From: a virus | Taxonomy: Duplodnaviria > Caudoviricetes | DNA length: 48,090 bases | IMG/VR virus record: IMGVR_UViG_3300020403_000020 | Coordinates: 1 to 48,090 of that record | Strand: one strand, 5' to 3' | Part shown: piece by piece, positions 1 to 34,543 of the stretch | Numbering within the stretch: position 1 is the first letter of the stretch | Layout: the number at the start of each line of letters is the position of its first letter | Made by a program: the position numbers and the translations under genes | The notes under the pieces: model-generated | The model's database searches: none | The model's input: the letters and a program-made list of their open reading frames with translations, nothing else | What the model was told of the DNA's origin: nothing

Positions 1-444
1 TTCTCGTTTCATTGTCTGGTTACATTCTGCGGAATAGCTGCAAAGACGGAAGCACACACCAACGTCCAATCACGGGCAAAGGTGTGCGTGGATGTCGCAT
101 CCGAGGCGCTACACCAAGGCGTTGACCCCGTGCTGGCTGTAGCTGTGGCATGGCGCGAATCTGCATGGACTCGCAGCGCGGTGTCAAAGGCTGGAGCTGT
201 GGGTCCGATGCAGGTGATTCCGCGGTTCTGGTGTAAGTCTAAGCCGTGCGACTACATCGAGGCGGGCGTGCGTGCCCTCAAGTATTACACCGAGAAACAT
301 GGCGAGCAGGGCGGGCTCTGCGCATACCTTAGCGGTAAGCCTTGCCAGTATGGTGGCGGGACAGTTAGCAGATACAGGTCCAGCGTAATCATGAAGGCGC
401 TCAAGTTTAACGAGCTTTTCTCCAAAGTCTGTTCAGGCTGTTAG
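1..444 (+). CDS. Lytic transglycosylase (SLT domain); gene spans the window junction, true start ATG at 48088-48090
   Basis: SLT motifs AVAWRES and SKAGAVGPMQV. Frame 1 is open from base 1, and the terminal GGAGAGTAAGATG supplies an RBS and an in-frame ATG, giving MFSFHCLVTFCGIAAKTEAH... Confidence 0.85.
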   Translation, partial: FSFHCLVTFCGIAAKTEAHTNVQSRAKVCVDVASEALHQGVDPVLAVAVAWRESAWTRSAVSKAGAVGPMQVIPRFWCKSKPCDYIEAGVRALKYYTEKHGEQGGLCAYLSGKPCQYGGGTVSRYRSSVIMKALKFNELFSKVCSGC

Positions 445-500
445 CCCCTTTATTCATGCGGGTTTGCGAGCGTCGTGAAATGTTTTTTTAAATATTTATA

Positions 501-592
501 CTTTTTTCGTTTTATTTACTTGATTAAAACTAAATCAGTCTATATGATGTTCTTAAGAGTTGAGGGAAACAACAAACGGAGAAAGCAAAATG
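501..592 (+). promoter_or_regulatory. Sigma70-type promoter and leader, class I copy 1
   Basis: TTGATT(520-525)-N17-TATGAT(543-548). Upstream CTTTTTTCGTnTATTTAC-like tract and leader AGGGAAACAACAAACGGAGAAAGCAAAATG are nearly identical to 3800-3889. Confidence 0.75.
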
Positions 593-910
593 AGCAAGGC
601 AACCAAAATCAAATTCGGCGCAAACGAGAACTTAGGCAGCTACAGTGATGATAAGCGAGCGGTTTTAGCAATGATTAGTGGCGACTGGGTTAAGGTCGGT
701 ACGCTTGAGGCGCAGACAGACATGTACTACCAGAATGACGGAACGCAGCGAAGACTCGTTAGTACGTATTATGCCCGCATCAATGGAATGGCCTCTTGTC
801 ATGCAGAAGTACGAAGCGGTAGCCGATATACAGGCGGCACAGTAGTTCAAAGCGCATCAAGCGCCAAGGCGAAAATCAAAGCAGAAATTCTTGAAACGCT
901 TAACAAATAA
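590..910 (+). CDS. Hypothetical early protein
   Basis: ATG at 590 preceded by AACGGAG RBS, directly behind the promoter. Confidence 0.75.
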   Translation: MSKATKIKFGANENLGSYSDDKRAVLAMISGDWVKVGTLEAQTDMYYQNDGTQRRLVSTYYARINGMASCHAEVRSGSRYTGGTVVQSASSAKAKIKAEILETLNK

Positions 911-938
911 TAGCTACCCGCAAGGGCTGAAAGGGTAG

Positions 939-956
939 GCCGCCCTTCGGGGCGGC
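939..956 (+). repeat. GCCGCCCTTCGGGGCGGC hairpin (UUCG tetraloop), copy 1 of 4
   Basis: Identical 18-mer at 939, 3511, 4607 and, on the minus strand, 27584-27601. Confidence 0.95.
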
Positions 957-974
957 ATTTCAACGGAGATAGAT

Positions 975-1097
975 ATGGTCGGATGGGAAGGCTTAGAGCC
1001 TCACTACGTCAGGGTTCTACGTGGAGAGAAGGCGCGAACAGTAACGACAGAGCCAAAACAATACGGCATCAAAGCGAGGCAAGCTCATGGCATATAA
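975..1097 (+). CDS. Small hypothetical protein (40 aa), not in the ORF track
   Basis: AACGGAGATAGAT-ATG RBS; reads MVGWEGLEPHYVRVLRGEKARTVTTEPKQYGIKARQAHGI and overlaps the start of the next gene. Confidence 0.55.
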   Translation: MVGWEGLEPHYVRVLRGEKARTVTTEPKQYGIKARQAHGI

Positions 1098-1944
1098 GCA
1101 AACAAAAACAATCGGAGGCACTGCGGTGTCCGCCATTCTCGGATTGAATCCGTGGGCGGGACCGTGGGATGCATGGCAGCGAATCCTTCACAATGTGCAG
1201 CTCGAAACGAACGAAGCAATGGAGCGCGGTGCGCGGCTCGAAGGTCCGATTGCGGAAGTGTGGGGCGCGCGGTCTGGCTTGACGCTTGTGGAGCCATTAC
1301 AGGGCACTGTCATCATTGACGAGACGTTCAGCGCCACAGCTGACCGTATCGCGTTTAAAGATGGCAAAGCGCAGGCAATCATCGAGATCAAGACTGCGAG
1401 CAAGTACGCCACCATCGACCCAGTGCCCAATCACTATTGGCTACAGGTACAGCACTATCTTTGGGCGTATAAGATGGACCGCGGCATACTGGTGGCGCTG
1501 CAAGCATTCCCCGAAGTGTTCCGCATGCTAGACACTGCGGACGATGTTGCTTTTGCGTTATCGAGAAACGCGGCCCAGCTCATCGTCCATGAGATAGAGC
1601 GTGATCCAAACTACGAAACGCAAACGATTCCAAGGCTCCGCGCATGGTTCGAGCGGCACATACTTGGCGGCGAAGTGCCAGACGTGGACGGCTCGAAGGC
1701 GTGCCGTGATGGGTTGTTTAACTTGCACGAGGAAAGAACCGAGCAAGGCGAAGCCGATGACGAGCTGGACGCATTGATCAATCTGCGCATGGCGGTGCGC
1801 GATGCGGAAGCGAAACAGAAAACACAGCGCGAGTTGATTGAAAACCAAATCAGAGACAAGATGGCCCACCGCCGAAAGATTGTTGGCACAGATGTGTCGT
1901 GCACTCTTTCCAAAAACAATCGGCTGACCTTTAAGGAAAACTAG
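1087..1944 (+). CDS. YqaJ-like / lambda-exonuclease family recombination nuclease
   Basis: IGGTAVSAILGLNPW, MERGARLE, ATADRI, IEIKT and YWLQVQHYL motifs. Confidence 0.9.
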   Translation: MAYKQTKTIGGTAVSAILGLNPWAGPWDAWQRILHNVQLETNEAMERGARLEGPIAEVWGARSGLTLVEPLQGTVIIDETFSATADRIAFKDGKAQAIIEIKTASKYATIDPVPNHYWLQVQHYLWAYKMDRGILVALQAFPEVFRMLDTADDVAFALSRNAAQLIVHEIERDPNYETQTIPRLRAWFERHILGGEVPDVDGSKACRDGLFNLHEERTEQGEADDELDALINLRMAVRDAEAKQKTQRELIENQIRDKMAHRRKIVGTDVSCTLSKNNRLTFKEN

Positions 1945-1947
1945 ACC

Positions 1948-2754
1948 ATGCGGAGCCCATTGCGGTACCCAGGCGGCAAGACTCGCGCCCGTTCCATCAT
2001 TGTGCCAAAGCTCACAAGGCAGCGCGCTACACGGCTGATTTCGCCCTTCATTGGTGGCGGCTCCGTCGAGCTGGCGTGGTTGTCTGCAAATCCGCATGGC
2101 GTGGCCGAATGCTTTGACCTTTATGAACCGCTGGCAGAGTTTTGGCGTTATCTGTTGATTGACCCACAGGGCGTCGCAACTCTGGCAAAGATGCATATGC
2201 CCTGCGAGCGTGATTTGTTCTATAAGCTGCAAAGCAAACTGGGAGAGCTTCAAGGTATTGAAAAGGCGGCGGCGTTCTTTGTCTTGAATCGCTGTTCATT
2301 TTCAGGCGCCACCAATAGCGGCGGCATGTCGCCAGGGCATCCGCGGTTCACAGAATCGAGCATCGACCGCGTGCGTAACTTCCGCGCGCCTTGGCTGAGG
2401 GTCAGGCGGTACGACGCGTTTGAGCTGTTGGCAGAGCTGGCAGACGAAAGCCCAGACGATAAGGTCGTTTATCTTGACCCACCGTATGCCATTGAGGGCG
2501 CAGCGCTTTATGGTGACAACGGCAGCGCCCACAGGGGATTTAACCATCAAGAGTTTGCCAGGCTATTCCATGAACTTAGCGCACGCGGCTGGCGCATGCT
2601 TTTGTCTTACAATGATTGTGGAAGCATTCGCGCGCTGTATAATACCGCACGGATAGAAACCGCGTCGTGGTCTTACGGCATGCGCGCGGGTGATTCGTCT
2701 GAGGTGTTGATTTATTCGGAGACGTGGAGCCATGAAGCTGCCCATAGAGATTGA
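1948..2754 (+). CDS. DNA adenine methyltransferase, Dam/D12 class
   Basis: PLRYPGGK, SPFIGGGSV (motif I), YLDPPY (motif IV), LSYND. Confidence 0.92.
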   Translation: MRSPLRYPGGKTRARSIIVPKLTRQRATRLISPFIGGGSVELAWLSANPHGVAECFDLYEPLAEFWRYLLIDPQGVATLAKMHMPCERDLFYKLQSKLGELQGIEKAAAFFVLNRCSFSGATNSGGMSPGHPRFTESSIDRVRNFRAPWLRVRRYDAFELLAELADESPDDKVVYLDPPYAIEGAALYGDNGSAHRGFNHQEFARLFHELSARGWRMLLSYNDCGSIRALYNTARIETASWSYGMRAGDSSEVLIYSETWSHEAAHRD

Positions 2755-3103
2755 AAATAGCAAAGTGCCCGTCTGGTTGTCATACCTGGCGCCGATTGAA
2801 ATTCATGCATTTAGCTTTGGTCCGTTCATCTGGTGCCGCGGCACATTCTCCACACGGTTACGAAACCATGAGACGATCCACTGGCGGCAGCAGCTTGAGT
2901 GCCTCTTCGTATTTCAGTGGCTTCTCTATGGATTGATGTGGTTTTGGATGCTCATGGAATACCGTGGCAACATGCGCGCAGCATATCGAAACAATCCTTT
3001 CGAGCGCGAAGCCTACGCAAACGACGTTGATCCAAACTACCTGGAATCTCGGAAACTGTTTTCATGGGTCAAATATATGTGCCACCAAAACCGAGAACCA
3101 TAG
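2732..3103 (+). CDS. Hypothetical protein with HExxH motif and hydrophobic segment
   Basis: NHETIH...QQ, hydrophobic stretch, NPFEREAY. Confidence 0.7.
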   Translation: MKLPIEIENSKVPVWLSYLAPIEIHAFSFGPFIWCRGTFSTRLRNHETIHWRQQLECLFVFQWLLYGLMWFWMLMEYRGNMRAAYRNNPFEREAYANDVDPNYLESRKLFSWVKYMCHQNREP

Positions 3104-3171
3104 AAAACCGCAAAACTTCAAAACGAAAAAACCTTTGCAAATAGTGCACTTACACACAAAAGTGCATAAGT

Positions 3172-3261
3172 GTGCATTTTTATCTTGTTTTATTAATACG
3201 CATTTCGTACCTTTAGGACATGAGCAACGGCGCTCAAAAAAACAAACGGAGAAAAAAGATG
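3172..3261 (+). promoter_or_regulatory. Promoter and leader, class II copy 1
   Basis: GTGCATTTTTATC-TTGTTT(3185)-N17-TACCTT(3208), then TAGGACATGAGCAACGGCGCTCA hairpin and AACGGAG RBS; matches the reverse complement of 28136-28225. Confidence 0.7.
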
Positions 3262-3501
3262 AATACAGCAATGAGCAACATGATCCCAAAACGCATCGAC
3301 TTCAAATATACTTCTGTTGTCGCTTCACCGTGTGGTGCGTTTATTGCTGAGGCAAAATATCAGACAAACGGCAGGATCTATAAAGGCAAATTCGAGTTGT
3401 CCACAAACGGCACTCTTTTTGATTCATTGGACAATGCTTTGAAGGCGGCTGCCAAGTACGAGCAGACCATGAAAGAACTAAACTGGCAGCACGCAAAATA
3501 A
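3259..3501 (+). CDS. Hypothetical early protein
   Basis: AACGGAGAAAAAAG-ATG at 3259. Confidence 0.7.
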   Translation: MNTAMSNMIPKRIDFKYTSVVASPCGAFIAEAKYQTNGRIYKGKFELSTNGTLFDSLDNALKAAAKYEQTMKELNWQHAK

Positions 3502-3510
3502 TCAAAACCC

Positions 3511-3528
3511 GCCGCCCTTCGGGGCGGC
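3511..3528 (+). repeat. GCCGCCCTTCGGGGCGGC hairpin, copy 2
   Basis: Exact repeat, lying between a stop codon and the next RBS. Confidence 0.95.
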
Positions 3529-3547
3529 ATTACAACGGAGAAACAAA

Positions 3548-3790
3548 ATGCAGAACAAAAACTTGAACGGATTCGTAATTGTTGTTGAGCGCAAGGTGAC
3601 CAAAAAAACAACGCATCGGGATTTGGTGCGAAATGCAAACGTCGTTTGCGTTTTCCCTTGCGTGACAACGGCGGCGACCCACGTCGAAAAAATGGAAATG
3701 CTCGAATGCTTTGACGCGAAGGACCGTGTTTCCATTGTCCACGGCTCAGTTGACTTGAATCTTGGCTGGTCGGTCGCGGCAATGGTTTAA
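3548..3790 (+). CDS. Hypothetical protein
   Basis: AACGGAG RBS and an 80-aa ORF. Confidence 0.7.
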   Translation: MQNKNLNGFVIVVERKVTKKTTHRDLVRNANVVCVFPCVTTAATHVEKMEMLECFDAKDRVSIVHGSVDLNLGWSVAAMV

Positions 3791-3799
3791 CAAAATAAA

Positions 3800-3889
3800 C
3801 TTTTTTCGTCTATTTACTTGATTTGTACGAAAATCGTCTGTATAACTATAAACAGATGGCAGGGAAACAACAACGGAGAAAGCAAAATG
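3800..3889 (+). promoter_or_regulatory. Sigma70-type promoter and leader, class I copy 2
   Basis: TTGATT(3818-3823)-N17-TATAAC(3841-3846); leader AGGGAAACAACAACGGAGAAAGCAAAATG. Confidence 0.78.
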
Positions 3890-4132
3890 ACAAAGTTTGA
3901 AATCATCTGTGAATTGAGAAATGCGCTAGTAGCTGCAAACGGTATTGCAAACGCTTACCATCGCGAGGAGAGCATCGAGGCGGTTTTTGCGGAAGCGTCC
4001 GAACACGATGCCGACATGCCAGGGTTCTTAGTAGAGTTCAGGTCATTTTGTGAATTTAACGGGCTTCTGCCTGCTAGCCGTCCAGCTATCATTGCAGAGC
4101 GTGCCGTGCAGACGCACATCACCACCAAGTAA
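3887..4132 (+). CDS. Hypothetical early protein
   Basis: ATG at 3887 with AACGGAG RBS. Confidence 0.7.
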   Translation: MTKFEIICELRNALVAANGIANAYHREESIEAVFAEASEHDADMPGFLVEFRSFCEFNGLLPASRPAIIAERAVQTHITTK

Positions 4133-4158
4133 GAAAAGCGATCAAAGGAGAGAACAAG

Positions 4159-4599
4159 ATGCAGAACATCACAATCGAATCAGTAAGAGCGCTCTATAGC
4201 GACAGCGAATTTGTCGCGTTGGTCGAGAACGTGAAGCGGTGCCGAGCAGAGGCGGCTTGCGTGCGCAAAGTTGTCGATGCTTACACGCTAGCAGTTTTCA
4301 AGAGCTTTAATTTGATTGACGATTACACAGGTGAAAAGATTGAGCGCATGGAGGACGCGTGGAACGCCAGTGAAGAGTCATTCAGCGCGTATAACGAAAA
4401 GTGCATTGAGGCGGCGCACGCGGCTGGCTTTGCACATTTAGGCGAATGCTGCCCTGCGTTGATTGCAGAGCATGAGCGCATCAAGGCAGAATCAGCACTG
4501 GTCGAAATGGCGTGCGCTGCTTGGGGCTTCGGTCGCATCTATAATCTGGACTTGAGCAATCGCCTACTTTCGATGCTCATGAAGCAGTTGCGAGATTAA
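4159..4599 (+). CDS. Hypothetical protein
   Basis: AAGGAG RBS and a 146-aa ORF. Confidence 0.75.
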   Translation: MQNITIESVRALYSDSEFVALVENVKRCRAEAACVRKVVDAYTLAVFKSFNLIDDYTGEKIERMEDAWNASEESFSAYNEKCIEAAHAAGFAHLGECCPALIAEHERIKAESALVEMACAAWGFGRIYNLDLSNRLLSMLMKQLRD

Positions 4600-4606
4600 C
4601 CAGCCC

Positions 4607-4624
4607 GCCGCCCTTCGGGGCGGC
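4607..4624 (+). repeat. GCCGCCCTTCGGGGCGGC hairpin, copy 3
   Basis: Exact repeat 7 nt after a stop codon. Confidence 0.95.
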
Positions 4625-4626
4625 AT

Positions 4627-4656
4627 TTGATCAATATGCGTTTTAAGTGTTATTAT
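4627..4656 (+). promoter_or_regulatory. Putative promoter
   Basis: TTGATC-N18-TATTAT with TGn extension. Confidence 0.4.
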
Positions 4657-4690
4657 GAAAGGGGCACTGTGGCTCCTGAAAGGTTGCAGC

Positions 4691-4852
4691 ATGGCATCAT
4701 TGCGGTATGTACGATTTGAAAATGTATCACTCGAAAAGATTCACGATTGGTTCACAGCTCAAGGCTTCAGCATTGAAGGCAATCGGGCAACTTCCCGTTG
4801 CCGTTCGCGGGTCTGGTGTTTCAATGGACAGACGGCGGTCCGTGTAGTATGA
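4691..4852 (+). CDS. Small hypothetical protein
   Basis: ORF downstream of the putative promoter; start chosen at ATG 4691 behind AAGG. Confidence 0.45.
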   Translation: MASLRYVRFENVSLEKIHDWFTAQGFSIEGNRATSRCRSRVWCFNGQTAVRVV

Positions 4853-4859
4853 AGCCCAC

Positions 4860-5045
4860 ATGGGCACACATGCAACAGAATCACTCAAGCGAAGATGGCG
4901 GCGAGGCTATCCACCAGGCACTCCATGCGGCCCAATGGGCTTGCCGATTTCCTATTGCCTGAAAAGCTACGAAGACAAAAATCAAAATCTGTCAAAGGCT
5001 TGCCAAGGCGTGAGCCGTTCGCGGGCACACAATCCTCAGACCTAG
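4860..5045 (+). CDS. Possible small hypothetical protein
   Basis: Fills the gap up to the terL stop; no clear RBS and competing frames exist. Confidence 0.3.
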   Translation: MGTHATESLKRRWRRGYPPGTPCGPMGLPISYCLKSYEDKNQNLSKACQGVSRSRAHNPQT

Positions 5046-6517
5046 CGCATATCGCCAGGGCGCAAAATTCGGCGCTCTGTGGCGTTTCCGCTCTTGAATG
5101 CGGCGGCTGCATTGCGCACGGCCTCAGAGCCGCCCCAGCGGGCGTTTATCGCCCAGTATCGCAAAGCGTCGCACGCGTGATCATGCACTCCGTCTTTCTT
5201 CGGAATGTCGCGGCTTCCCGTCTGCCACTTATAATTCGTCACGGACTTGGCAAATGAACGGCCGCCCGTCTGCGTGCCGTAGTTCCAGAGCTGGTGCGAG
5301 CATAGCAAGCGACGCTCGCCCGCGTTGGTTTCCATAAGTCGCCACAGTAGACGGATGCCCGCGTTGATGTCGATTCGCCCAGGCTGGTCGGTAAACGCTA
5401 CACGCAGACCGAGCCCGCCCGCATCAGGTGCGGCTTGCACGTCTGACATGGCGCTGGTCATGTTTTGGTCGTCTCGCATATTACGCCCAGCGCGGTCGCC
5501 ATAGGCAATGTGACAGGGGATTGATCCCAATGGCAGGTCAGCGGTGCGATATGCTGGCCATATGCCAGGGATACCAAACGACGGTATGCCCTTTCGTAGC
5601 ATGCCGCACAAATCAAAAACGCTTGCGCGATCTGGGTTCGCTTCGCTCCAAATCACGTCGGCACCATTCTCTCCGATTCTTGGATCATGCGAGATAACGA
5701 GCGCAGACGGTGAGCGTACTCCAAAGTCCATGGTGACCATTGTGCGCATCCACGGAAGCGGCTGCCATGACTTTTGGGTGATGTTTCCGCGCGGGTATTC
5801 TTCAGGGCTCCACATGTCAAAGACGGCGCCTTCAGGCGATTGAGGCACGCAGTAAATATTTTCAAGAACTTCACGGCGCGAAAGCGTGCCCACCCAATCG
5901 TCAAAGTTTGGCAGGTTCTCACGGTTGACGGTAGACGGGCAGAGAAACCCGACACCGCCGCGGTCTTCTGCAAACCTTATCTGCCAGGGGTCGTATGTCG
6001 GCTTACCCATAAGGCACAGGCGCCCAGGGTTGCCAGAGCGCACACGTCCAAGCATTGCGCTGCCAACTTCGGAATCGAGCACTTGAGCTTCATCTAGAAT
6101 GCCCCAGCCGCAGTCGGGACCTTCGAGAGAGTTTGCTGCCATGCTTTTCCCGCTGGGACGTTTCCAAGATAGGGCCCAGACAATCGTCTGCCTTCCGTTC
6201 TTTGTTGGGCTTTTCCAGTGTGGCGCAGGTTGTCCCTTGTAGGCGTGATGATACACCCAGCCGAGCGGCTCAAGCAGCGCAGCCATTTCGGTGGCGATGG
6301 TTCGCGCACCGCGGCCCATTGAGTCAGTGACATAGAAACCATTGATGCCTGGATCATCTTCGTGTGAGAGGTGGCAGAGCATAGCCACAAGGCGCGTTTT
6401 GCCTACACCCCAGCCACCGCACATCGAGACAATCGGAAAACGCTTCGACAGCCACAGGGCGATGAATTTCATTTGTCCCTTGTTTGGCTTGAACTCTGCC
6501 AGGATGTTGTCAATCAT
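5042..6517 (-). CDS. terL: Terminase large subunit
   Basis: Walker A GGWGVGKT, Walker B GILDEAQ, nuclease domain MDFG...DHACDALRY. Confidence 0.92.
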   Translation of the reverse strand: MIDNILAEFKPNKGQMKFIALWLSKRFPIVSMCGGWGVGKTRLVAMLCHLSHEDDPGINGFYVTDSMGRGARTIATEMAALLEPLGWVYHHAYKGQPAPHWKSPTKNGRQTIVWALSWKRPSGKSMAANSLEGPDCGWGILDEAQVLDSEVGSAMLGRVRSGNPGRLCLMGKPTYDPWQIRFAEDRGGVGFLCPSTVNRENLPNFDDWVGTLSRREVLENIYCVPQSPEGAVFDMWSPEEYPRGNITQKSWQPLPWMRTMVTMDFGVRSPSALVISHDPRIGENGADVIWSEANPDRASVFDLCGMLRKGIPSFGIPGIWPAYRTADLPLGSIPCHIAYGDRAGRNMRDDQNMTSAMSDVQAAPDAGGLGLRVAFTDQPGRIDINAGIRLLWRLMETNAGERRLLCSHQLWNYGTQTGGRSFAKSVTNYKWQTGSRDIPKKDGVHDHACDALRYWAINARWGGSEAVRNAAAAFKSGNATERRILRPGDMR

Positions 6518-18280: not shown

Positions 18281-21205
18281 ATGGCCCAGGGAATTTTCCT
18301 ACATGAATATAATACAGGCGGAAAGCTCTATGACGGAGCGGTTTCCGTTGCCAACAACAAGCTGGCGAATCGTCAATATGTAATTGACAATGCGGCCCTA
18401 CAGTCAAACAACCTTAGCGACCTGGACAGCGCAGAAACGGCACGAACCAATCTTGGTGTCGCAATCGGCTCCGATGTGCAGGCATTTTCCGCACGTCTCG
18501 GAGAGTTGGCTGCCCTTTCTCAAAGTGATGGATCTTTTGTGGTCTCTGATGGTTCCAGTTTTGTCTTTGAATCTGGCGCAACGGCAAGAGCATCGCTTGG
18601 CCTAACCATCGGCACCCATGTGCAGGCGTTTGATGCGCAGCTCTCAGACGTTGCTGGGCTCACGCCAAGTGATGGAAATTTTATCGTTGGTGATGGCTCC
18701 AACTTTGTCGCGGAGTCTGGCTCGACCGCGCGGGCGTCTCTTGGCTTAACAATCGGGTCCGATGTTCAGGCATACGACGCGGAGCTGGCGGCTCTTGCTG
18801 GTTTAACGTCAGCGGCCAATAAGCTGCCAATGTTCAGCGGTAGCGGCACTGCAACACTCATTGATTTCGTTGACGAAGACGACATGGCCAGCAACAGCGC
18901 CACCGCAGTACCATCACAGCAGTCTGTCAAGGCGTATGTGGACGGCGTTAAGCAGGGGCTCGACATTAAGGACTCCGTGCGAGTTGCAACGACGGCAGCG
19001 GGCACTCTTTCCAGCGCATTCGCTAATGGTCAGACTGTAGACGGTGTGAGCCTAGCCACAGGTGACCGTATCTTGATCAAGGATCAAACCGATGCAACCG
19101 AGAACGGTGTATATACTGTTAATGCAAGCGGTGCCCCGACTCGCGCAACTGACTTTGATAGCTCTGCGGACGTCACCGCGGGCGCTTTTGTTTTCGTTGC
19201 CGAAGGTACAGCCAACGCGGATTCTGGTTTTGTTTTAACGACAAATGACGGCACGGGCGACATTGATCCCGACACGTCGAGCAGATACACAGGGTTTGAT
19301 CCTGTCTTCGGCTCAGCCACGACCTTAACTGGAATGACGCTTTCAAGCGCTACTCTTAACGCGTCGTCCAACAGCGTGTCATATTCTGCGGGAAATGATG
19401 CTGTAACTTTGCCAGCAAATGGCGTGATCATTTTCTCGGATGGCTCGGATACGATTGCCTTCAGGCTACAAAATAGCAGCCAGAGCATTAACAGCGGGAG
19501 CGGGTCCATTAGCTTCGCGAATGGCGCCACCGTTGACACAAAGGCTGAATCGTCAGTTACCAGCATGGCAACGTCGGACATCACTGGGATCACATTTAAA
19601 TCCTTAACGTCCGAAGGTTTTCACCGCAAAGTAAGTGGAAATCAAATCGACGAATCGACAACAAGCATTGCTTTCGGTGGTGCAGCCAGTTGGCCTGGCG
19701 GAACGGTTCCGTCTGGAAAGTATATTGAGTTCAAAGATGGCGGCAGCACGTTCTACTACAGAACAACAGCTGAATTGTCGAATGGTGACTTTTTTGTCTC
19801 TGTTGTAGCAGATACCGACGCATCATCAAGCACAACCTATAGTAACCTGTTTCCAGGACATCCTACACAGACTAACTTTTTTAATTCGCAGGGTAGTGCA
19901 GCAATCAGCCCAGGCACAACCGAGTTGGCTTTCACCCAGTTCAGCGGTGCGGGGCAAATTACGGCAGGCACTGGTCTTGTGAAGAGCGGCAACACCATTA
20001 GCGCAACGGGTGGACTCGCAGACATTGCGGGACTAGCAAAGACGGACGGTGGCATCATTGTTGGTGACGGTTCCAACTTTGTTTTGGAAAGTGGATCAAC
20101 CGCGCGAGCATCATTGGGCGCGCAGGCTTCGCATGCTCGACTTGATGACATCAGCGGGCTTGCTGTAACCGACGGTGGCATCATTGTTGGTGATGGCTCC
20201 AACTTCGTGCTGGAAAGCGGTGCAACGGCCCGCGCGTCTCTTGGTGTTGCGATCGGTTCAGATGTGCAGGCGTATGATGCTCAGCTCGACACATTGTCTG
20301 GATTCACCGCTGCACAGGTGACGCGAGGCATTGCCGACGATAACCTGTTGACGGTTGACGACGCTGATGCAGCCGACAACGACTACGCCAAGTTTACCGC
20401 TAACGGTATCGAAGGCCGTAGCTTCAGTGAAGTAAGGACTGATCTTGGTCTTGTGATTGGTACAGACGTGCAAGCATACGACGCACAGCTGGACACCCTT
20501 TCAGGCTTTACTGCCGCACAGGTGACACGAGGCATCGCAGACGACAACCTGATTACCGCGGATTGTGCATCGCACGCGATTGCAAGCGGAGATTTTGCGC
20601 GGTTCACAGCGGATGGTGTTGAGGGCCGTGAAGCGTCACAGGTTAGATCTGACCTGTCTCTTGTTCCTGGTACGGACGTGCAAGCATACGACGCGGAGCT
20701 GGCAGCCATCGCTGGACTCACCAGCGCAGCAGACAAGGGCATCATGTTTAACGGTAGCGCAAGCGCGACAACCTTCGACTTGACGGCGGCGGGTCGTGCG
20801 TTGCTTGATGATGCCGACGCAGCAGCCATGCGCTCAACGCTTGGGCTTGTTATCGGTACTGATGTTGCGGCAGCTGACTCTACCGAGTTGAGTGTCACAA
20901 CCAGCGAGCCATCAAGCATCGCAATCGGTGACGTGGGCGGTATGTTTGTCTATGATCTTTCTGGATCATCTTCACACACTGTATCGTTGCCAAGCACGGC
21001 CACATCTGGATGCCTTGGCAAGTCCATCATCTTCAAGGTTAAGAGCACCGTTAACTCACAGACGTTGACAATCAACCCAGCGTCTAATCAGACCATAGAG
21101 GGTGAGTCATCAATCGTCTTAAACCAAGAGCGTCAATCAATCCGCCTCGTAATCTCGGAAGAGTACAGCAGCGGATCAGGCGTTCAGTGCTGGGTGGCTG
21201 TATAA
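18281..21205 (+). CDS. Long repetitive fibre protein (head or tail fibre)
   Basis: Repeats IVGDGSNFVLESGxTARASLG and DVQAYDA(Q/E)L; gpH-like KAYVD...DIKDSVRVATT...GDRILIKDQT...NGVY; C-terminal TVSLP...FK module. Confidence 0.8.
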   Translation: MAQGIFLHEYNTGGKLYDGAVSVANNKLANRQYVIDNAALQSNNLSDLDSAETARTNLGVAIGSDVQAFSARLGELAALSQSDGSFVVSDGSSFVFESGATARASLGLTIGTHVQAFDAQLSDVAGLTPSDGNFIVGDGSNFVAESGSTARASLGLTIGSDVQAYDAELAALAGLTSAANKLPMFSGSGTATLIDFVDEDDMASNSATAVPSQQSVKAYVDGVKQGLDIKDSVRVATTAAGTLSSAFANGQTVDGVSLATGDRILIKDQTDATENGVYTVNASGAPTRATDFDSSADVTAGAFVFVAEGTANADSGFVLTTNDGTGDIDPDTSSRYTGFDPVFGSATTLTGMTLSSATLNASSNSVSYSAGNDAVTLPANGVIIFSDGSDTIAFRLQNSSQSINSGSGSISFANGATVDTKAESSVTSMATSDITGITFKSLTSEGFHRKVSGNQIDESTTSIAFGGAASWPGGTVPSGKYIEFKDGGSTFYYRTTAELSNGDFFVSVVADTDASSSTTYSNLFPGHPTQTNFFNSQGSAAISPGTTELAFTQFSGAGQITAGTGLVKSGNTISATGGLADIAGLAKTDGGIIVGDGSNFVLESGSTARASLGAQASHARLDDISGLAVTDGGIIVGDGSNFVLESGATARASLGVAIGSDVQAYDAQLDTLSGFTAAQVTRGIADDNLLTVDDADAADNDYAKFTANGIEGRSFSEVRTDLGLVIGTDVQAYDAQLDTLSGFTAAQVTRGIADDNLITADCASHAIASGDFARFTADGVEGREASQVRSDLSLVPGTDVQAYDAELAAIAGLTSAADKGIMFNGSASATTFDLTAAGRALLDDADAAAMRSTLGLVIGTDVAAADSTELSVTTSEPSSIAIGDVGGMFVYDLSGSSSHTVSLPSTATSGCLGKSIIFKVKSTVNSQTLTINPASNQTIEGESSIVLNQERQSIRLVISEEYSSGSGVQCWVAV

Positions 21206-21212
21206 GTTAAAC

Positions 21213-21234
21213 GACCCCCACGCCCGTGGGGGTC
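21213..21234. terminator. Hairpin between convergent genes (probable bidirectional terminator)
   Basis: GACCCCCAC-GCCC-GTGGGGGTC between the fibre stop and the ERF stop. Confidence 0.65.
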
Positions 21235-21245
21235 TGCCCTCCTAC

Positions 21246-22016
21246 CTAGAAAGGGGCCGCGTCATCGTGCGCGGCCTCATTTTCCAACGAGTCAATCAAT
21301 GCACACATGGCCACAAGGTCAACGCATTCGTCCATCTTGCCTACGTTGCGCATAGACTCAGTGGTGGTCTTGCTCCAGGTTCGCCCCTCAAGCGGTCCGA
21401 GCTTACCCAAAAGATTCTCAATCCTTGATCGAGTTATCGACAAAACCATGTCATGCTCCAACCCCTCACTTTCAACCTTATCGGCCAAGCCTTGCAGGGT
21501 CTTCGTCATCTGTGGCAACTCGCTCCACCCCATCACCGACTGGAGAGCGTTGGCTGGCACGCTTGGGTACTGTTGAGGCGCCGAGTTTTTAGGTTTGCGG
21601 GCATTTCGTGGGTGCTGGGTGCCCTTGCCTGCGCTGGCTCCGTCGTCGTCCTCTGGCGCGATTCCTAGCAGTGCCTGGAACGAATATCTGCGGGCGTAAG
21701 TATATGCAGAGCCAAACGCCTGCGCATCGCTCATCTTTTTATCTGCCTTAAAGAACACAGGGCACTCGGTTTCAATCCATTCGCCACTTGCATGGGTTAA
21801 CCGTGTCACGCAAAACCATCCGCCGTCTGTCATGGTTACACCTTGAAAGACCGCCAGCCCGTTTTCACTGATAGCATCGCGGGCGCTGTTCATGACCGCA
21901 TCGAGTGGCGCATACTTGTAGTTGTACGCTTTTGTGTTTTTGTGCACAGGCTGAACGGCACTTTGCGCTTTTGATAGTGCGTCAAATATCGCCCCAACTG
22001 TTTCCGATGTCCTCAT
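21246..22016 (-). CDS. ERF-family single-strand annealing protein
   Basis: ALSKAQ...YKYAPLD...TRLTHASGEWIE...QAFGSAYTYARRYS...EDDDG; start ATG 22016 with AACGGAG RBS. Confidence 0.9.
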   Translation of the reverse strand: MRTSETVGAIFDALSKAQSAVQPVHKNTKAYNYKYAPLDAVMNSARDAISENGLAVFQGVTMTDGGWFCVTRLTHASGEWIETECPVFFKADKKMSDAQAFGSAYTYARRYSFQALLGIAPEDDDGASAGKGTQHPRNARKPKNSAPQQYPSVPANALQSVMGWSELPQMTKTLQGLADKVESEGLEHDMVLSITRSRIENLLGKLGPLEGRTWSKTTTESMRNVGKMDECVDLVAMCALIDSLENEAAHDDAAPF

Positions 22017-22079
22017 CTTTTCTCTCCGTTTTCTTTGCGCCATCTTCGGGTGACGCGTTCCCGCTTTATGGTATAATAG

Positions 22080-22161
22080 GGGTGAGGTTTTAAACCTCGC
22101 CCGTTCGCGATTGGGTGCGGACATCTAGCGCCGCTGTCCTCGCTAGGTGTCCGCTATTTTT
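22080..22161 (+). ncRNA. Candidate small RNA: two hairpins and a U tract, antisense to the ERF leader
   Basis: TGnTATAAT at 22069-22077; stems 22080-22102 and 22117-22154, each with a G-U pair valid only on the + strand; ends TATTTTT. Confidence 0.5.
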
Positions 22162-22172
22162 CAATACCATAC

Positions 22173-22190
22173 TTTTTCCGAGCGGAAAAA
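22173..22190. promoter_or_regulatory. Palindromic operator-like site TTTTTCCG-AG-CGGAAAAA
   Basis: The same site occurs at 43579-43594 and, with one mismatch, at 43430-43445. Confidence 0.65.
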
Positions 22191-22213
22191 CAAAAATCGA
22201 GAGATAATGCGGC

Positions 22214-25200
22214 ATGGTTGATTTAACTAAACTGAGGCAGAAAGATCGCCGGCCTTGCTACGTGTTGAGGATTGCGGGCGTGCCCGTTCTCTATGGCACA
22301 CACATGCCGCCAGCGTTATCGACTAACGGAATCACGCACGCCAGGCGCGCGTCAATCATTGCCAACGATATTTCATTCAGTAGGCGCCATGATGAAAACG
22401 CGCGCGTGGTTGAGGTGTCAAATCTTGAAATCGTTTTGAGCTCTGACGAGCAGTACACCTCCGACCAGTATGATCCTGGAAAGATATTTGGTCGGATTGG
22501 CTTTCAGGGCGCGGACTCCTTCACAAGGATCACGGCAAACGTGGATCCCACCGACGTCTCACTTACGGTTCAAGACAATTCTGGGTTTGCGGCAGCCGAC
22601 ACAATACACGTCGGACAAGAAACCATGACGGTCACAAACATTATAAGCACGGACACCATAAGGGTGTCTCGCGGCATCCTTGGTACGTTTCCGAGGTTTC
22701 ACCGTGTAGACGGCGCGAGCGGCTCCTTTCCCTATGTGACCAAGCCGTTGACGTATTTCCGTGGTCGCCGCGTGGTTGTTTATGAGGGGCGCGTGAATGA
22801 TGATGGCAGTGTTTCGGATAGTTTAGACGACTATGCTGAAGTTTTCCGCGGGTTCCTAGCGTCTGAACCAGCCGTGGCAGTCAGCGGTCAGAGTCATGAG
22901 GTCACGCTTGAGATTGCGCCTTTGACGGCCGTTTTGGATAAGCCTTTGCCTGCCTCAACTCTCAAGACGAATTTGCACCCTATCCTCCACGCATTTGATG
23001 GTACCATTGCGAATAAGATTGCGGTTCACTCGTTTCATCAGACGGGGCAAATGTGGCGATCAAATTGTGAAATTCAGCTAAACTCAAGCGGGACAGAATT
23101 TCAGTACCTCAATCGCGAAGGCGCAGCAGCTGATATTGACAATCGCTTCGACAACGACATTTCTGAGTTTCATCCAAGAGGCATGGCGATAAGGTGTGAT
23201 TTTACGACACGAAATAAGGTCTTGTTTTTAGGTCCAGACAGCATAAGCACAGACCCGGTTAGTGGACACCTAATGATTCACAACCTTTATGTGCAGTCAA
23301 CAGTCACCGATGTCTTGAACCAAACAGGCGGCGGGGCAAATATCACTGGCGCCTTTGTTGAGTTAAAAAGCCGTGGAGGGTTCGAGACAAAAATTGTACG
23401 CATATCTATTTTGGGCACAAGGTCAAGCGCACATGTGGCAAACTGGCGCCATTTGCTTGGCGAAAGATTCAACTCTGCTCTGACGACTGGCACACATTTG
23501 GGGCTTTCTGGCTTTCACTTTGATGTCGGGCTAGACGTCAGCGTGGGCGAGATATTTATAAGTCCGAACTTTAGCGCCCGTGGAGTAGGAAGCAAGCCAG
23601 CGGCACAGTTTGTACTTTCCAATAGCATTTCAAAAGCTAGGAGCGCCATTCAAGACAGCGGTATGTTTCCTGACATGTTCGTTGTACTTCGGGAGGTCAT
23701 CGGGCGACAGGCGCAGAGCGATGTTGATACCAACGCGCCACATGATTCATCAAATGTAGGATACCGAACCATCCTTGAAAACCTACCTTTTATTGTGGGC
23801 GCCACACAAAACGAGTTTCTACCCTCGTCGGTGCTAAGGCTTGACGACGAAGACGGCAACGCTAGAGTCTTTCACATGGAAGCGGAGCGGCTTATCGTGA
23901 CCGACGGCGGAACAAGCGTACATGCGCCACTCTGTGATGCATACATACACATAGGCAACGTGTTCAACGGGCCAGGCGAAAATGTGCCCTTGTCATCGTG
24001 TGAGCGGTTTGTGGTTTTCGAGGATTCGCTTGGAGTGGCGAGCGGAACCAGTGCTGATGTTCTAATTTCTCAAGATGACGAAGCTGTGGCGATGCTAAGG
24101 GTGTCGAATGAGACGAGCGTGTCATCTGACGGATTCACGGGGTTCCAGTATCAAGTTGATCAGGTAACCAAATATAAAGACATTGAAACCATCGCAGATG
24201 TTCCAGGAGAGAAGCGCCACACAGTCACCCCAACCATACGCCCATCAGATGAAAGCATAGGTCAGCTATTAGTGAGGCTGCTTGTAAGCGCAGACGGCGA
24301 CAGCAAGACATCAAGCACTCACGATACGATGGTTTTCGGTGCTGGGCTGTCTGATGGAACGGGGCATGCCGATACGTTCGGGGCGGATATTGATGTTGAT
24401 TCGTTTTTAGCGATTCCAAACCCAATTGCAGCGGAGGTTTTTGGACCAATCTACAAAGAAGGCGACACACTGCTCGAAACGGTAGAAGGGCTTTTGCTTG
24501 CCGTGGGTTACACTGTAGACATTTCAACGAACAGCCTCGGCAAATGCAAGCTGAGGGCCGTAGAGTTAACCTTGCCGCTTGAGTCTGATGTGTCCCAGAC
24601 TTTCACCACCGCAGAAATAGCACAAAAGCCAACGCCAAGCAGTAGCGCCGAGCTGTCCATAAAAAACGTCTTCAAGTTCACTGCAAACTACAATCACGAA
24701 GGTGATGCAGATGTCGAAGTGACGGTGCGCGACCAGGTCAGCATTGATTTGTTTAAAGAGGCGCAAGATTTATCTGTAGACCTAAAAGGCATCAAGCTCA
24801 ACACTACAACGCCAGGTGATGCGGTTCATGATCTGCGCCCGCTTTTTTCAAAGCTCAGATTGGAAAACTCTTTTCCGAGGCGCGTCTTTACGTTTGATGT
24901 TCCGACGAGCCTGCTACAATCTTTGGCGCTTGGTGATACATGCACAGTGACCCATCCACTACTTAGAAGCACATCGGGTCTGGGCGTTACAACCGAGCCC
25001 GCGCGCGTGCGCTCTATTGAATATGATGGATATTCGCCCACTGGATCGATTGAGCTGGTGGCCTATGGAACGGTCGGGCAGTCGTGGAACATGGCGGCCA
25101 ATATTATCTCGATAGTGGCTGGATCTGGCTCTCTTGCAGTCAACGTGTCAGCTAATGAGCACAGCCCGACAGCTCGACCCAGTGACGGGTCAGCCATTGA

Positions 25201-25456
25201 AGATTCAAGCGGGTTCCATGTGAGTCAGTGGGTGGACGTGTTTTCTGTTTATGATATGGACGCTCCAATAGTCACAACCAAAATCACCTCAATAAACACG
25301 GCCACCAATCAAATTGTTTTGGCTTCGAGCGTTTCGGGTCTGACTTTTGACTCTTTGTCGTTTGGGTTCATGGGGTTTCTCGTTCCGCGTGACTTTTCAA
25401 ACGCAACCAGCGACGTTCGCAAATATGGATTCATCAACAGGACCACAGCGACATGA
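22214..25456 (+). CDS. Large tail tip / hub-like structural protein
   Basis: 1080 aa, beta-rich; C-terminal LALGDTCTVTHP...ARVRSIEYD is typical of tail tip proteins. Confidence 0.65.
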   Translation: MVDLTKLRQKDRRPCYVLRIAGVPVLYGTHMPPALSTNGITHARRASIIANDISFSRRHDENARVVEVSNLEIVLSSDEQYTSDQYDPGKIFGRIGFQGADSFTRITANVDPTDVSLTVQDNSGFAAADTIHVGQETMTVTNIISTDTIRVSRGILGTFPRFHRVDGASGSFPYVTKPLTYFRGRRVVVYEGRVNDDGSVSDSLDDYAEVFRGFLASEPAVAVSGQSHEVTLEIAPLTAVLDKPLPASTLKTNLHPILHAFDGTIANKIAVHSFHQTGQMWRSNCEIQLNSSGTEFQYLNREGAAADIDNRFDNDISEFHPRGMAIRCDFTTRNKVLFLGPDSISTDPVSGHLMIHNLYVQSTVTDVLNQTGGGANITGAFVELKSRGGFETKIVRISILGTRSSAHVANWRHLLGERFNSALTTGTHLGLSGFHFDVGLDVSVGEIFISPNFSARGVGSKPAAQFVLSNSISKARSAIQDSGMFPDMFVVLREVIGRQAQSDVDTNAPHDSSNVGYRTILENLPFIVGATQNEFLPSSVLRLDDEDGNARVFHMEAERLIVTDGGTSVHAPLCDAYIHIGNVFNGPGENVPLSSCERFVVFEDSLGVASGTSADVLISQDDEAVAMLRVSNETSVSSDGFTGFQYQVDQVTKYKDIETIADVPGEKRHTVTPTIRPSDESIGQLLVRLLVSADGDSKTSSTHDTMVFGAGLSDGTGHADTFGADIDVDSFLAIPNPIAAEVFGPIYKEGDTLLETVEGLLLAVGYTVDISTNSLGKCKLRAVELTLPLESDVSQTFTTAEIAQKPTPSSSAELSIKNVFKFTANYNHEGDADVEVTVRDQVSIDLFKEAQDLSVDLKGIKLNTTTPGDAVHDLRPLFSKLRLENSFPRRVFTFDVPTSLLQSLALGDTCTVTHPLLRSTSGLGVTTEPARVRSIEYDGYSPTGSIELVAYGTVGQSWNMAANIISIVAGSGSLAVNVSANEHSPTARPSDGSAIEDSSGFHVSQWVDVFSVYDMDAPIVTTKITSINTATNQIVLASSVSGLTFDSLSFGFMGFLVPRDFSNATSDVRKYGFINRTTAT

Positions 25457-26208
25457 GCATACCGATACCAACAGAGCGGACGGGTGATTTTAATCTGACG
25501 GAGCGGGAGTGGTTACGCCGTCTGCGAGGCACCACTTTGGGACAGCTTGCAGACTCAGCTAACCAGCTTTGTTTTCGGCAGGGCTTTAACTGCATCAATA
25601 AGGTTTGGACCTATGCGATAGACCGCACCGACAAGAGCAGCGGCGGGGGCAATGTGATGTGGGACATCAACTTATTCGCATCTGCAAACGTTGAGTACTT
25701 CGTGGACATACCGCGCACACACCCAGCGGCGACGCAGCTCGGTGTGATATTGACCTACATGGCGCCAAATGATTTAGAAGACGATCTAACGCCAAGCGGG
25801 ACTCTAGGCAGTGCGGGACAAAGCGCCATCCGTGTGCGATTAAAAAACGCCAGCGGCACAGCACTGGACCCGCCGCCATCGTCGTCCAACTCATGGGCGG
25901 TAATCATGAGCGGTTCAGAAATGCCATCACCGCGCGTGATAAACAGTGAAACAAATGTTTTTGAATTTGAGTCCAGCGGTGACGTGTCTTTTTCAAGGCA
26001 GGGCAGCGGCGAACATGGATACAGTGCGAACATTGTGCGGTCTTTCCTGTATCTTGACAGAGGCACAATTGGCACCCATACGGCGCCCAGGAGAATTGGA
26101 TATGGAACAGCGGCCGGCACGTCGCAGCATGTATACTTAGAGTTTTCGGTAGACTATGCAGCCTTATTAGAGGCCACGGTTTTCGAGGTTCCAAAGCTGT
26201 TTGCATAA
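25453..26208 (+). CDS. Putative tail-associated protein
   Basis: ATGA-coupled to the upstream gene; beta-rich. Confidence 0.6.
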   Translation: MSIPIPTERTGDFNLTEREWLRRLRGTTLGQLADSANQLCFRQGFNCINKVWTYAIDRTDKSSGGGNVMWDINLFASANVEYFVDIPRTHPAATQLGVILTYMAPNDLEDDLTPSGTLGSAGQSAIRVRLKNASGTALDPPPSSSNSWAVIMSGSEMPSPRVINSETNVFEFESSGDVSFSRQGSGEHGYSANIVRSFLYLDRGTIGTHTAPRRIGYGTAAGTSQHVYLEFSVDYAALLEATVFEVPKLFA

Positions 26209-26438
26209 TGTCTACCATTGACTTCAAAAGACCTACATTTGTAGGGTTGACCGTTGCGGGTGATACGCTTGATAGGCTGCTACTATTGGGCGACCTATGT
26301 GACAAAGCGTGGGGCAACAATGTGGGGCAGTGGGTGCGGTTGATTGTGCGGCTACACCGTGGCGCGTGCTTACCCCAAACCATTGGCGAGGCGTTGGACG
26401 ATATAGAAGAGCAGGCCCTGCAATCTCTAAATGTTTAG
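26208..26438 (+). CDS. Hypothetical protein
   Basis: TAATG coupling to the upstream gene. Confidence 0.5.
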   Translation: MSTIDFKRPTFVGLTVAGDTLDRLLLLGDLCDKAWGNNVGQWVRLIVRLHRGACLPQTIGEALDDIEEQALQSLNV

Positions 26439-26717
26439 AGAATCCAAGGCCCTCGCGAATCGTTCTAGGTATTGCTCTTTGGTTAGTTCCTTGTAGTCTG
26501 ACTTGATCATTTCTCTAGCTTCGGCGCCTGACCTTGTTTTGGGCTTTCTGCCAGTCGGAGCGCCCACCAGCTCATCGTCCAAAATTCTGCCAATCGTTCC
26601 GCGGGTCACCTCGTAGAGCCTAGCCATTTCATAGGCACTGATTGGCCCGATTGCTTCAATGATCGCTTTTCGTACTTTTTTGCGGTGGTTGTGCACTCGC
26701 TCAACATCTTCGCGCAT
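26427..26717 (-). CDS. Small HTH-like protein
   Basis: ISAYEMARLYEVTRGTIGRIL; AACGGAG RBS before ATG 26717. Confidence 0.65.
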   Translation of the reverse strand: MREDVERVHNHRKKVRKAIIEAIGPISAYEMARLYEVTRGTIGRILDDELVGAPTGRKPKTRSGAEAREMIKSDYKELTKEQYLERFARALDSLNI

Positions 26718-26731
26718 TTCTGTTTCTCCGT

Positions 26732-27566: not shown

Positions 27567-27583
27567 GATTCTCTCCATTGAAA

Positions 27584-27601
27584 GCCGCCCCGAAGGGCGG
27601 C
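27584..27601 (-). repeat. GCCGCCCTTCGGGGCGGC hairpin, copy 4
   Basis: The + strand reads GCCGCCCCGAAGGGCGGC, the exact reverse complement of the repeat. Confidence 0.95.
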
Positions 27602-27610
27602 GGGTTGTTA

Positions 27611-28138
27611 TTAGTAGGACGCCCGAAAGAAGGCCGCTTCGCTGCATGGGTAATCAAAACATTCGTCATCTTCGTCATCTTCGTCATCTACAATCGGGCA
27701 CACAGATTGAAGCATATCGACCAGCGCATAGGTCGCAGTCAAGCCACAAAGAATGTCAGCAATGTGCAGCCATGTGATATAAAAATCGAACTTCATATGG
27801 TCGAGAAATTTGCCCCTTTCTACGAGCATTCTTTCTCGCGCAGCCTTTATTAAATCATGCACAGAAACGGATTCCCAAGTTCCTGGCAGGCTTACACATG
27901 ATCCGTTTACACGCCGCTCGACCGCAGCAAACTCGATTGATGACCCCCTAAACTTGCTATAGTTGATCGCCCAAGCCGATACGCGCTCACGCATTAACAA
28001 ATAAAACATCTTTTCTTTTTGCTCTTCAGTGCCGCAGCACTCAAGCATGTCTCTAATGGTATGCCTCAAGTAATCACTGCCCCCTAATGTGATGCTGCTT
28101 GGGCAAACATTTAAAGTGGTATAAAATTTGTTACTCAT
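27611..28138 (-). CDS. Hypothetical early protein
   Basis: AACGGAGAGAACGAA-ATG; first gene after the class II promoter. Confidence 0.7.
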   Translation of the reverse strand: MSNKFYTTLNVCPSSITLGGSDYLRHTIRDMLECCGTEEQKEKMFYLLMRERVSAWAINYSKFRGSSIEFAAVERRVNGSCVSLPGTWESVSVHDLIKAARERMLVERGKFLDHMKFDFYITWLHIADILCGLTATYALVDMLQSVCPIVDDEDDEDDECFDYPCSEAAFFRASY

Positions 28139-28225
28139 TTCGTTCTCTCCGTTCTTTTTTGTGAGCCCCGTTGCTCATGCCCTAAAGGTACTAAACCTGT
28201 ACTAATGGTCAAGATAAAAATGCAC
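28136..28225 (-). promoter_or_regulatory. Promoter and leader, class II copy 2
   Basis: Minus strand GTGCATTTTTATC-TTGACC-N16-TACCTT-TAGGGCATGAGCAACGGGGCTCA...AACGGAG. Confidence 0.72.
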
Positions 28226-28265
28226 TAAATGTGAACTATTTTAAAAACGTTGTGATTGCGGACAC

Positions 28266-30480: not shown

Positions 30481-30485
30481 TTTCT

Positions 30486-30698: not shown

Positions 30699-30699
30699 T

Positions 30700-32073: not shown

Positions 32074-32079
32074 GGTCTT

Positions 32080-32119: not shown

Positions 32120-32125
32120 TCAAAT

Positions 32126-33090: not shown

Positions 33091-33107
33091 CCAAAGGAGA
33101 AACGAGC

Positions 33108-34529: not shown

Positions 34530-34543
34530 TATAGTTTCGGACT

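Follow-up and report, generated by a model that had tools for sequence, protein, structure and literature searches.

Conserved leaders and hairpin-fused ribosome-binding sites bound variable gene slots in an uncultured marine phage clade

The virus record IMGVR_UViG_3300020403_000020 (Caudoviricetes; CheckV completeness 100%), analysed here over its full 48,090 nucleotides (nt) and referred to as the window, contains four gene slots in which conserved leaders and a hairpin fused to a ribosome-binding site (RBS) bound small, mutually unrelated genes. Relatives of this marine phage differ at those same bounds, and we consider it probable that the genes are swapped by general single-strand-annealing recombination within short shared repeats. 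The window encodes a terminase, portal, capsid and tape measure protein together with DnaB, SSB, ERF and YqaJ, and the sequencing runs containing the phage are marine or estuarine. A search of 50,697 phage records gave no match for its TerL, and prokaryotic genome contigs contain no relative of it.

An earlier reading of the sequence alone (the original prediction) had described four promoter-hairpin units, each enclosing one or more open reading frames (ORFs), and all four are present (Table 1). Exact copies of the 18-mer GCCGCCCTTCGGGGCGGC lie at 939, 3511 and 4607 on the plus strand and at 27601 on the minus strand, four where none is expected (mean 0.00 in 100 shuffles), and the window holds no further match at up to two mismatches. 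The leaders fall into the two near-duplicated classes that had been proposed, class A at 520 and 3818 (72% identity over 43 nt; family D16) and class B at 3185 and 28212 (83% over 64 nt; pair I1), and no pair among the seven slot ORFs of the window is similar by blastp at E ≤ 1, in line with the claim that the enclosed genes are unrelated. All four leaders terminate in AACGGAGA-N7–9-ATG. The same motif is found in the hairpin-fused RBS: an RBS and then a new gene come straight after three of the four hairpins, and a promoter-like site after the remaining one (4607). Because the motif that follows the hairpin also closes every leader, a short direct repeat stands at both ends of each RBS-ORF-hairpin unit; the promoter-to-hairpin unit first proposed is thus correct as a layout but better described as an RBS-ORF-hairpin unit between copies of this shared motif. 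ORF975 and ORF3548, which lay outside the units originally proposed, are also variable.

Relatives were drawn from 33 loci, four stretches of genomes G001–G003 and two further loci (L001–L037) and were collapsed to ten distinct relatives: L015, L001/L023 (G001), L002, L003, L006, L007, L008 (G003), L009/L024 (G002), L033 and L035. We left out L014 (99.86% identical, the same phage), further loci of the same genomes, L016 (short, resembling L001), L032 and L034 (early region absent) and L036. The last was the sole match to the hairpin-RBS pattern in genomes, has no similarity to the window and was taken as a chance match; in viral contigs the exact pattern gave no match and a relaxed pattern matched four, every one from the window's clade. 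Population data were contigs, rather than reads, from sequencing runs (X3, X6 and X10 among them) at 88% likeness. The closest relative with differing cargo is L015, at 91–94% nucleotide identity to the window.

Consistent with the original prediction that the enclosed ORFs vary while their flanks stay, the 28 leader-proximal ORFs of the window and its ten relatives belong to 21 families: seven in ten genomes at slot 1, eight in 11 at slot 2, two in two at slot 3 and three in three at slot 4. G002 retains none of the seven slot ORFs versus 44 of 51 other genes, and G001 one of seven versus 46 of 48 covered genes (p about 1e-5), so that relatives do not carry the same orthologues in every slot. 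At slot 1, L009 and L008 share the leader and the downstream gene around cargo of 59 and 225 amino acids (aa), respectively. At slot 2, L007 and L009 have leader, 85-aa ORF, hairpin and 67-aa ORF, and L006, L008 and L033 have leader and 67-aa ORF only; loss or gain of the 85-aa ORF together with its hairpin is the product expected of a crossover in CAACGGAGA. At slot 4, G001 retains the hairpin and the next gene around a 71-aa cargo, and its leader is of class A where that of the window is of class B, showing that the promoter cores vary as well. The genes flanking the hairpin are reassorted independently of one another, in the pairings 83 aa with 214 aa (L001), 61 aa with 214 aa (L033), 62 aa with YqaJ (L003), 59 aa with 383 aa (L009) and 225 aa with 383 aa (L008).

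Cargo has also moved from lineage to lineage and from slot to slot. L001 and L033 share a 214-aa cargo at 92.5% identity, and L003 and L033 a 62-aa cargo at 94.5%, against 62% for YqaJ and 71% for TerL, and both cargo-sharing pairs are split by a branch with 100/100 support in the TerL tree. The transferred tracts begin at the RBS or ATG and finish at the stop codon or at AACGGAG. A homologue of ORF590 (45%) lies behind a leader near SSB in G003, that is, in a different slot; ORF4159 has a relative that stands first behind the slot-2 leader in L001 (81% aa identity) and a short 5' relic in slot 1 of L002; and L035 carries a complete unit at yet another site.

Breakpoints between the window and its relatives lie in many cases at the leader RBS/ATG and at the hairpin, as the original prediction had anticipated. 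Homology with L015 stops at slot ATGs, at 597 (8 nt into ORF590) and 3270, and restarts at 1064, just before YqaJ, and at 4609 in the hairpin; over the slot-1 leader 97 of 100 nt up to position 597 match L015, and to the right of that position only 29 of 100 do. The other L015 breaks (the PAPS-reductase indel, the window ends and 7686 in a methyltransferase gene) include none at repeats. Variants of the same kind co-occur in natural populations. A 5595-nt X3 contig joins 27603 to 28136 with 206 other letters in place of 27604–28135, ORF28138 having been swapped exactly between its ATG and the hairpin; in X10 the loose end found at 28135 is a different one. Contigs from X3 and X6, two separate studies, join 3777 to 4605 and lack slot 3; in X6, ORF3887 stands behind another leader, L015 cargo is found at 597 and 940, and one contig (depth 2.6) skips ORF975. 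A loose end in X3 links the leader ATG at 3261 directly to the start of ORF3548, weakly, over 13 letters. In total 8 of 16 curated break positions fall in repeat zones that make up 7.3% of positions 1–5300 (p=6e-6), after removal of paralogue mappings and with joints 266–446 and 690–917, probably diverged alleles, counted as misses at 266, 446 and 690. Two apparent joints were dropped: X3 joint 3252–3503 as a paralogue mapping, its depth of 79.7 and its loose ends matching the slot-4 contig, and the X6 joint that goes back from 3541 to 1087, which is not a circle, the slot-1 hairpin having been placed on the 3511 copy. Among the 15 of 19 joints listed for a control stretch (21101–41000), those other than slot 4 and one inversion lie in or across other genes, and five are substitutions of the same or nearly the same length.

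We posit that left crossovers would lie in the 3' end of the leader (…CAACGGAGA…ATG) and right crossovers in the hairpin-ATTTCAACGGAG segment. Recombination at these positions between two phages would replace the cargo; between a leader RBS and a hairpin RBS, it would lead to the gain or loss of a single RBS-ORF-hairpin unit. The likely candidate catalyst is the phage's own ERF together with YqaJ, as originally suggested; YqaJ is present in nine of the ten relatives, the tenth (L007) having no coverage of the site. Exchange between phages could use long flanking homology, and since within-genome repeats span just 8–24 nt, unit gain or loss through the RBS would be rare. One report describes recombination of diverged DNA by ERF/Exo of phage D3 and puts the length required by Red-beta at 23–27 bp (PMC3945230). 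The repeats probably serve expression first, as a shared promoter, an operator-like dyad and an RBS, with their use in crossovers a consequence.

The hairpin itself appears to be under selection for RNA structure, because its stem covaries and its loops are of the UNCG/GNRA type. Over 16 aligned copies of the 7-bp stem, 95.5% of cells are paired, with five cells changed on both sides; slid controls give 41–59% and none of 500 shuffles reaches as high a value, which is not to be read as a probability given that the copies are related. The loops are UUCG, UACG, GAAA or GAGA, and UNCG and GNRA tetraloops are extra-stable in RNA. There is no Rfam match. A classical intrinsic terminator was considered and rejected, no U-run following the hairpin on the coding strand and a terminator scan flagging the antisense side of the 3511 copy alone. 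Since YqaJ and the slot-4 operon lie behind hairpins with no other promoter seen, we suggest that the hairpin probably protects the upstream message or terminates in part rather than acting as a full stop. The second hairpin-like motif, H2, folds without significance in L015 (z=0.26).

The leaders resemble repeated sigma-70-like early promoters with AT-rich upstream DNA and a Shine-Dalgarno sequence. A sigma-70 rule scan picked 520 alone of the three plus-strand leaders it covered, and we therefore infer promoter activity from the consensus; on that basis the leaders would be early promoters for the host RNA polymerase. In the spacer separating the -35 from the -10 box, 25 of 28 leaders carry an inverted repeat, AC-N7-GT (shuffle mean 1.1, maximum 6; other spacings 0–2), and in 16 leaders the next pair outward is complementary. 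The dyad reads CAC..GTG in all three G001 leaders and TAC..GT in most others. A candidate partner is the 96-aa product of the last gene in the slot-4 operon, with helices predicted at residues 28–35 and 39–46 and weak matches to the LacI headpiece (E=0.14) and to a PHROG DNA-binding family (E=4e-4, one member); Foldseek gave no significant match, nor did a comparison with any Aca family. The putative recognition helix of this helix-turn-helix (HTH) candidate reads TRGT in the window and TRAT in G002; in G001, the lineage with a different dyad, the helix differs and reads DRRT. We offer the dyad and the 96-aa protein as a lead, drawn from three genomes, towards an operator-repressor pair; the dyad could alternatively belong to promoter recognition.

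Several observations weigh against exchange by recombination in the repeats. Against a null restricted to intergenic DNA the breakpoint excess (8 of 12 in repeat zones) is not significant (p=0.07), and part of the enrichment could for that reason reflect selection for intact genes. The hairpin is optional, closing 18 of the 28 units in a count made by eye since the pattern search missed variants. Exact within-genome matches are short (8–12 nt between leader and hairpin, 8–18 between leaders, 18–24 between hairpins), most of them below the length quoted for Red-beta. Genes are also gained and lost without repeats: dam is absent in six of the nine relatives covering its site, HNH-like or other genes are inserted beside it (1944–1948, a second variable, repeat-free site), and a PAPS-reductase-family gene (46286–47443) is absent in L015, G001 and G002. 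At 88% likeness, joints with short sides may stem from repeats or foreign organisms. The original prediction had pointed to deletion, inversion and circle junctions as places to look. Deletion and inversion joints are present in the contigs. No circle joint occurs over 1–5300 in contigs of four runs, which drop rare forms, and the inversion ends lie outside the repeats: a 7-kb joint of 21256 to 28267 on opposite strands, found in X6 (depth 18.2) and X10 and suggesting that those populations carry the ERF-to-slot-4 block in inverted orientation, shares only an 8-nt gene-end motif at its ends, as one end of the 3777–4605 joint likewise falls outside repeats. G001 and G002 are oriented like the window. 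The proposal of standard exchange slots is supported in part, as regards cargo turnover and transfer between lineages and slots.

The strongest alternative is that the repeats are solely expression signals under selection and that cargo arrives by rare homology-independent events, breakpoints appearing at the repeats only because joins elsewhere would destroy a gene or its signals. The intergenic null, the repeat-free indels and the RNA-structure selection on the hairpin all fit such a process, the operator-like dyad would explain the likeness of the leaders without recombination, and most phage mosaic boundaries carry no conserved sequences, according to one study (PMC3029335). It does not readily explain why unrelated cargo repeatedly comes with the same hairpin-RBS element behind it, why recent inter-lineage tracts run from RBS/ATG to AACGGAG or stop codon, why a clean unit indel passes through CAACGGAGA, or why one cargo family stands behind leaders of different slots. 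We judge it unlikely on balance, although it deserves serious consideration, and favour annealing within the repeats.

Integrons show a pattern of a promoter followed by ORF-plus-hairpin units, and the slots resemble them in that such units are gained and lost behind a promoter. An integron-like site-specific system, in which a recombinase would read the hairpin as a folded single-stranded site and insert ORF-hairpin cassettes behind the promoter at CAACGGAGA, would account for the order of promoter, cassette and hairpin and for the promoter-proximal position of new units. It is nevertheless highly improbable: no tyrosine or serine recombinase (PF00589, PF00239) is matched in this complete genome and the window has no integrase, the hairpins have RNA-type tetraloops and a stem that varies with compensation, junctions in a small sample are scattered along the repeats with no single fixed crossover base, and many units have no hairpin. 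That the alternative slot contents are assembly chimeras at repeats is largely refuted and hardly credible, since, even though every genome is a metagenome assembly and the apparent 3252–3503 joint was a mapping artefact of the slot-4 paralogue, the longest exact inter-element repeat (24 nt) is shorter than the 31-letter words of the run index, the junctions of the L015 62-aa and 88-aa cargo recur in run X6, and the 62-aa junction is found in both L003 and L033 and the 214-aa junction in both L001 and L033.

Exchange at regulatory repeats has been described for promoter-early stem-loop (PeSL) cassettes in the T4-type phage pairs RB49/phi1, PST/T4 and nt-1/KVP40 (PMC2839356; PMC4122927). As portrayed in those papers, PeSLs resemble the slots in having repeated sigma-70-like promoter, stem-loop and Shine-Dalgarno elements beside orphan genes, with insertions, deletions and replacements at the elements and no dedicated recombinase identified; they are composites roughly 100 bp long, the stem-loop lying within the promoter or next to it, and are reported with some 50 copies to a genome, terminator activity shown by test and mini-circles. 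Here too, orphan genes at the elements differ between near relatives, and indel and replacement breakpoints lie at the elements, significantly so against a uniform null and not against the intergenic null. The window differs in having four units in a 48-kb phage with tape measure, ERF and DnaB, which is not a T4-like myovirus genome. Its promoter stands apart from its hairpin, with the gene between them (three of the four hairpins lie more than 300 nt downstream of their own leader's -35 box), the hairpin is fused to the next RBS without a U-tract, the promoter bears a dyad, and a composite occurs only at 4607–4656. We do not file the slots as PeSLs, since they depart from them in two features that define the class, a composite element and a genome of T4 type.

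The idea that boundary sequences guide exchange originates with lambdoid phages. In the boundary-sequence or linker model, as cited in PMC3029335, short conserved sequences at gene edges are crossover points between unrelated modules, as proposed here. In the window, unlike in that model, the bounds consist of two defined elements, a promoter leader and a hairpin-RBS element that covaries; they recur at several loci within a single genome, which also allows cargo to change slot. Morons are likewise single accessory genes with their own promoter and downstream stem-loop, as described in PMC2839356; their signals are not regarded as shared crossover sites, whereas in the window it is the signals that persist through changes of gene, and transcription presumably continues past the hairpin into core genes. 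The acr-aca operons (Aca2, PMC6765145) share the inverted-repeat promoter and the variable small genes, and their downstream HTH gene has a candidate counterpart here; in the window, by contrast, the HTH candidate has no significant Aca match, the dyad recurs in leaders at several loci and a repressor role is only a candidate one. A literature search, which left subscription journals uncovered, found the PeSL papers and no account of the window's clade or of an RBS-fused hairpin. The system is thus a variant of PeSL and boundary-sequence shuffling rather than a new kind of system, the principle having been published in T4-type phages. Gene shuffling at regulatory repeats is thereby extended past those phages to a small clade of uncultured marine phages, where the evidence includes variants co-occurring in natural samples, and the system offers a simple means of testing whether homology the size of a ribosome site can be used by an ERF-type annealase.

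The original prediction had suggested host-takeover or anti-defence genes as cargo. No such annotation was obtained, and PHROGs, Pfam and PADLOC gave no informative match for the window's cargo. The predicted model of ORF590 has no significant fold match (best Z 6.1, root-mean-square deviation 2.9, 78 aligned), and the Atlas gave nothing usable for ORF4159 and only unnamed clusters below 0.8 for ORF590. Among relatives, the 214-aa cargo of L001 has a weak GNAT match (E=0.006), and the 225-aa gene of L006 matches an uncharacterised PHROG family (E=4.5e-10) and, less well, an ejected-protein family (E=1.7e-5). ORF975 is likely a deletion remnant of the 371–383-aa gene that is intact in L006, L008 and L009. 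With the leader and dyad signature as a marker, about 21 families of orphan proteins become candidates for screens of host interaction. A bolder proposal, which we put forward speculatively and with considerable doubt, is that of integrase-free cassettes: RBS-ORF-hairpin units gained, lost and reassorted via a 9–12-nt ribosome-site repeat at dispersed slots, all under one phage HTH repressor whose operator evolves along with it (TAC..GTA in most lineages, CAC..GTG in all three leaders of G001), the slots holding a pool of at least 20 undescribed anti-defence or host-takeover proteins in marine populations.

Table 1. Coordinates of slot elements and associated genes in the window
Feature	Position	Strand	Remarks
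Class A leader, slot 1	500..592	+	-35 TTGATT 520–525; dyad AC-N7-GT 529–539; -10 TATGAT 543–548; RBS AACGGAGA 575–582
ORF590, slot-1 cargo, 106 aa	590..910	+	no known family; predicted beta-sheet and C-terminal helix
H2, second, weaker hairpin-like motif	914..938	+	common to L015, there upstream of a different 88-aa gene; joints or loose ends at 917, 940
Hairpin copy 1, fused to RBS (ATTTCAACGGAGA)	939..969	+	
ORF975, 40 aa, likely remnant	975..1097	+	last 16 aa match C-terminus of the gene at the same position in L006/L008/L009 (62–69% over 16 aa)
YqaJ/RecE-like exonuclease	1087..1944	+	conserved core gene; PF09588 E=4.8e-12
Class B leader, slot 2	3160..3261	+	-35 TTGTTT 3185–3190; dyad 3198–3208; -10 TACCTT 3208–3213; RBS 3245–3252
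ORF3259, slot-2 cargo, 80 aa	3259..3501	+	no family; 0 homologues in loci searched
Hairpin copy 2, fused to RBS	3511..3541	+	
ORF3548, variable ORF after hairpin, 80 aa	3548..3790	+	0 homologues in loci searched
Class A leader, slot 3	3791..3889	+	-35 TTGATT 3818–3823; dyad 3827–3837; -10 TATAAC 3841–3846; RBS 3872–3879
ORF3887, slot-3 first cargo, 81 aa	3887..4132	+	no family
ORF4159, slot-3 second cargo, 146 aa	4159..4599	+	
Hairpin copy 3, then promoter-like TTGATC-18-TATTAT (4627–4656)	4607..4656	+	sole PeSL-like composite; L015 homology restarts at 4609
ERF-family single-strand annealing protein, candidate catalyst	21246..22016	-	PF04404 E=3.3e-26
Candidate HTH repressor, 96 aa	26427..26717	-	last gene of slot-4 operon; diverged homologues in G001, G002; all evidence weak
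Hairpin copy 4, fused to RBS (TTTCAATGGAGA)	27572..27601	-	runs into ORF27566
ORF28138, slot-4 cargo, 175 aa	27611..28138	-	no family; replaced in G001, G002 and one X3 contig
Class B leader, slot 4	28136..28240	-	-35 TTGACC 28212–28207; dyad 28200–28190; -10 TACCTT 28190–28185; RBS 28153–28146

Outside the slots, a sulfotransferase-like gene (42054–42653) is absent in G002 and G003; together with the PAPS-reductase-family gene it is possibly a DNA-modification or auxiliary gene that varies without repeats. In L015, the sequences matching positions 48090 and 1 are separated by about 350 nt that include a 113-aa ORF; the window record, which ends on the apparent ATG of that ORF, probably lacks this short piece. 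Long internal repeats of about 100–140 nt are found in the tail-fibre gene (18400–20700), and three tandem 30-nt repeats, origin-iteron-like, lie inside a DnaD-like replication gene (43928–44017). In L001 (7831–8730) the transglycosylase and methyltransferase genes stand in the opposite order to that of the window, and at about 2670–2850 in L029 a 30-nt tandem repeat differs in length from that of the otherwise 99.6% identical L035.

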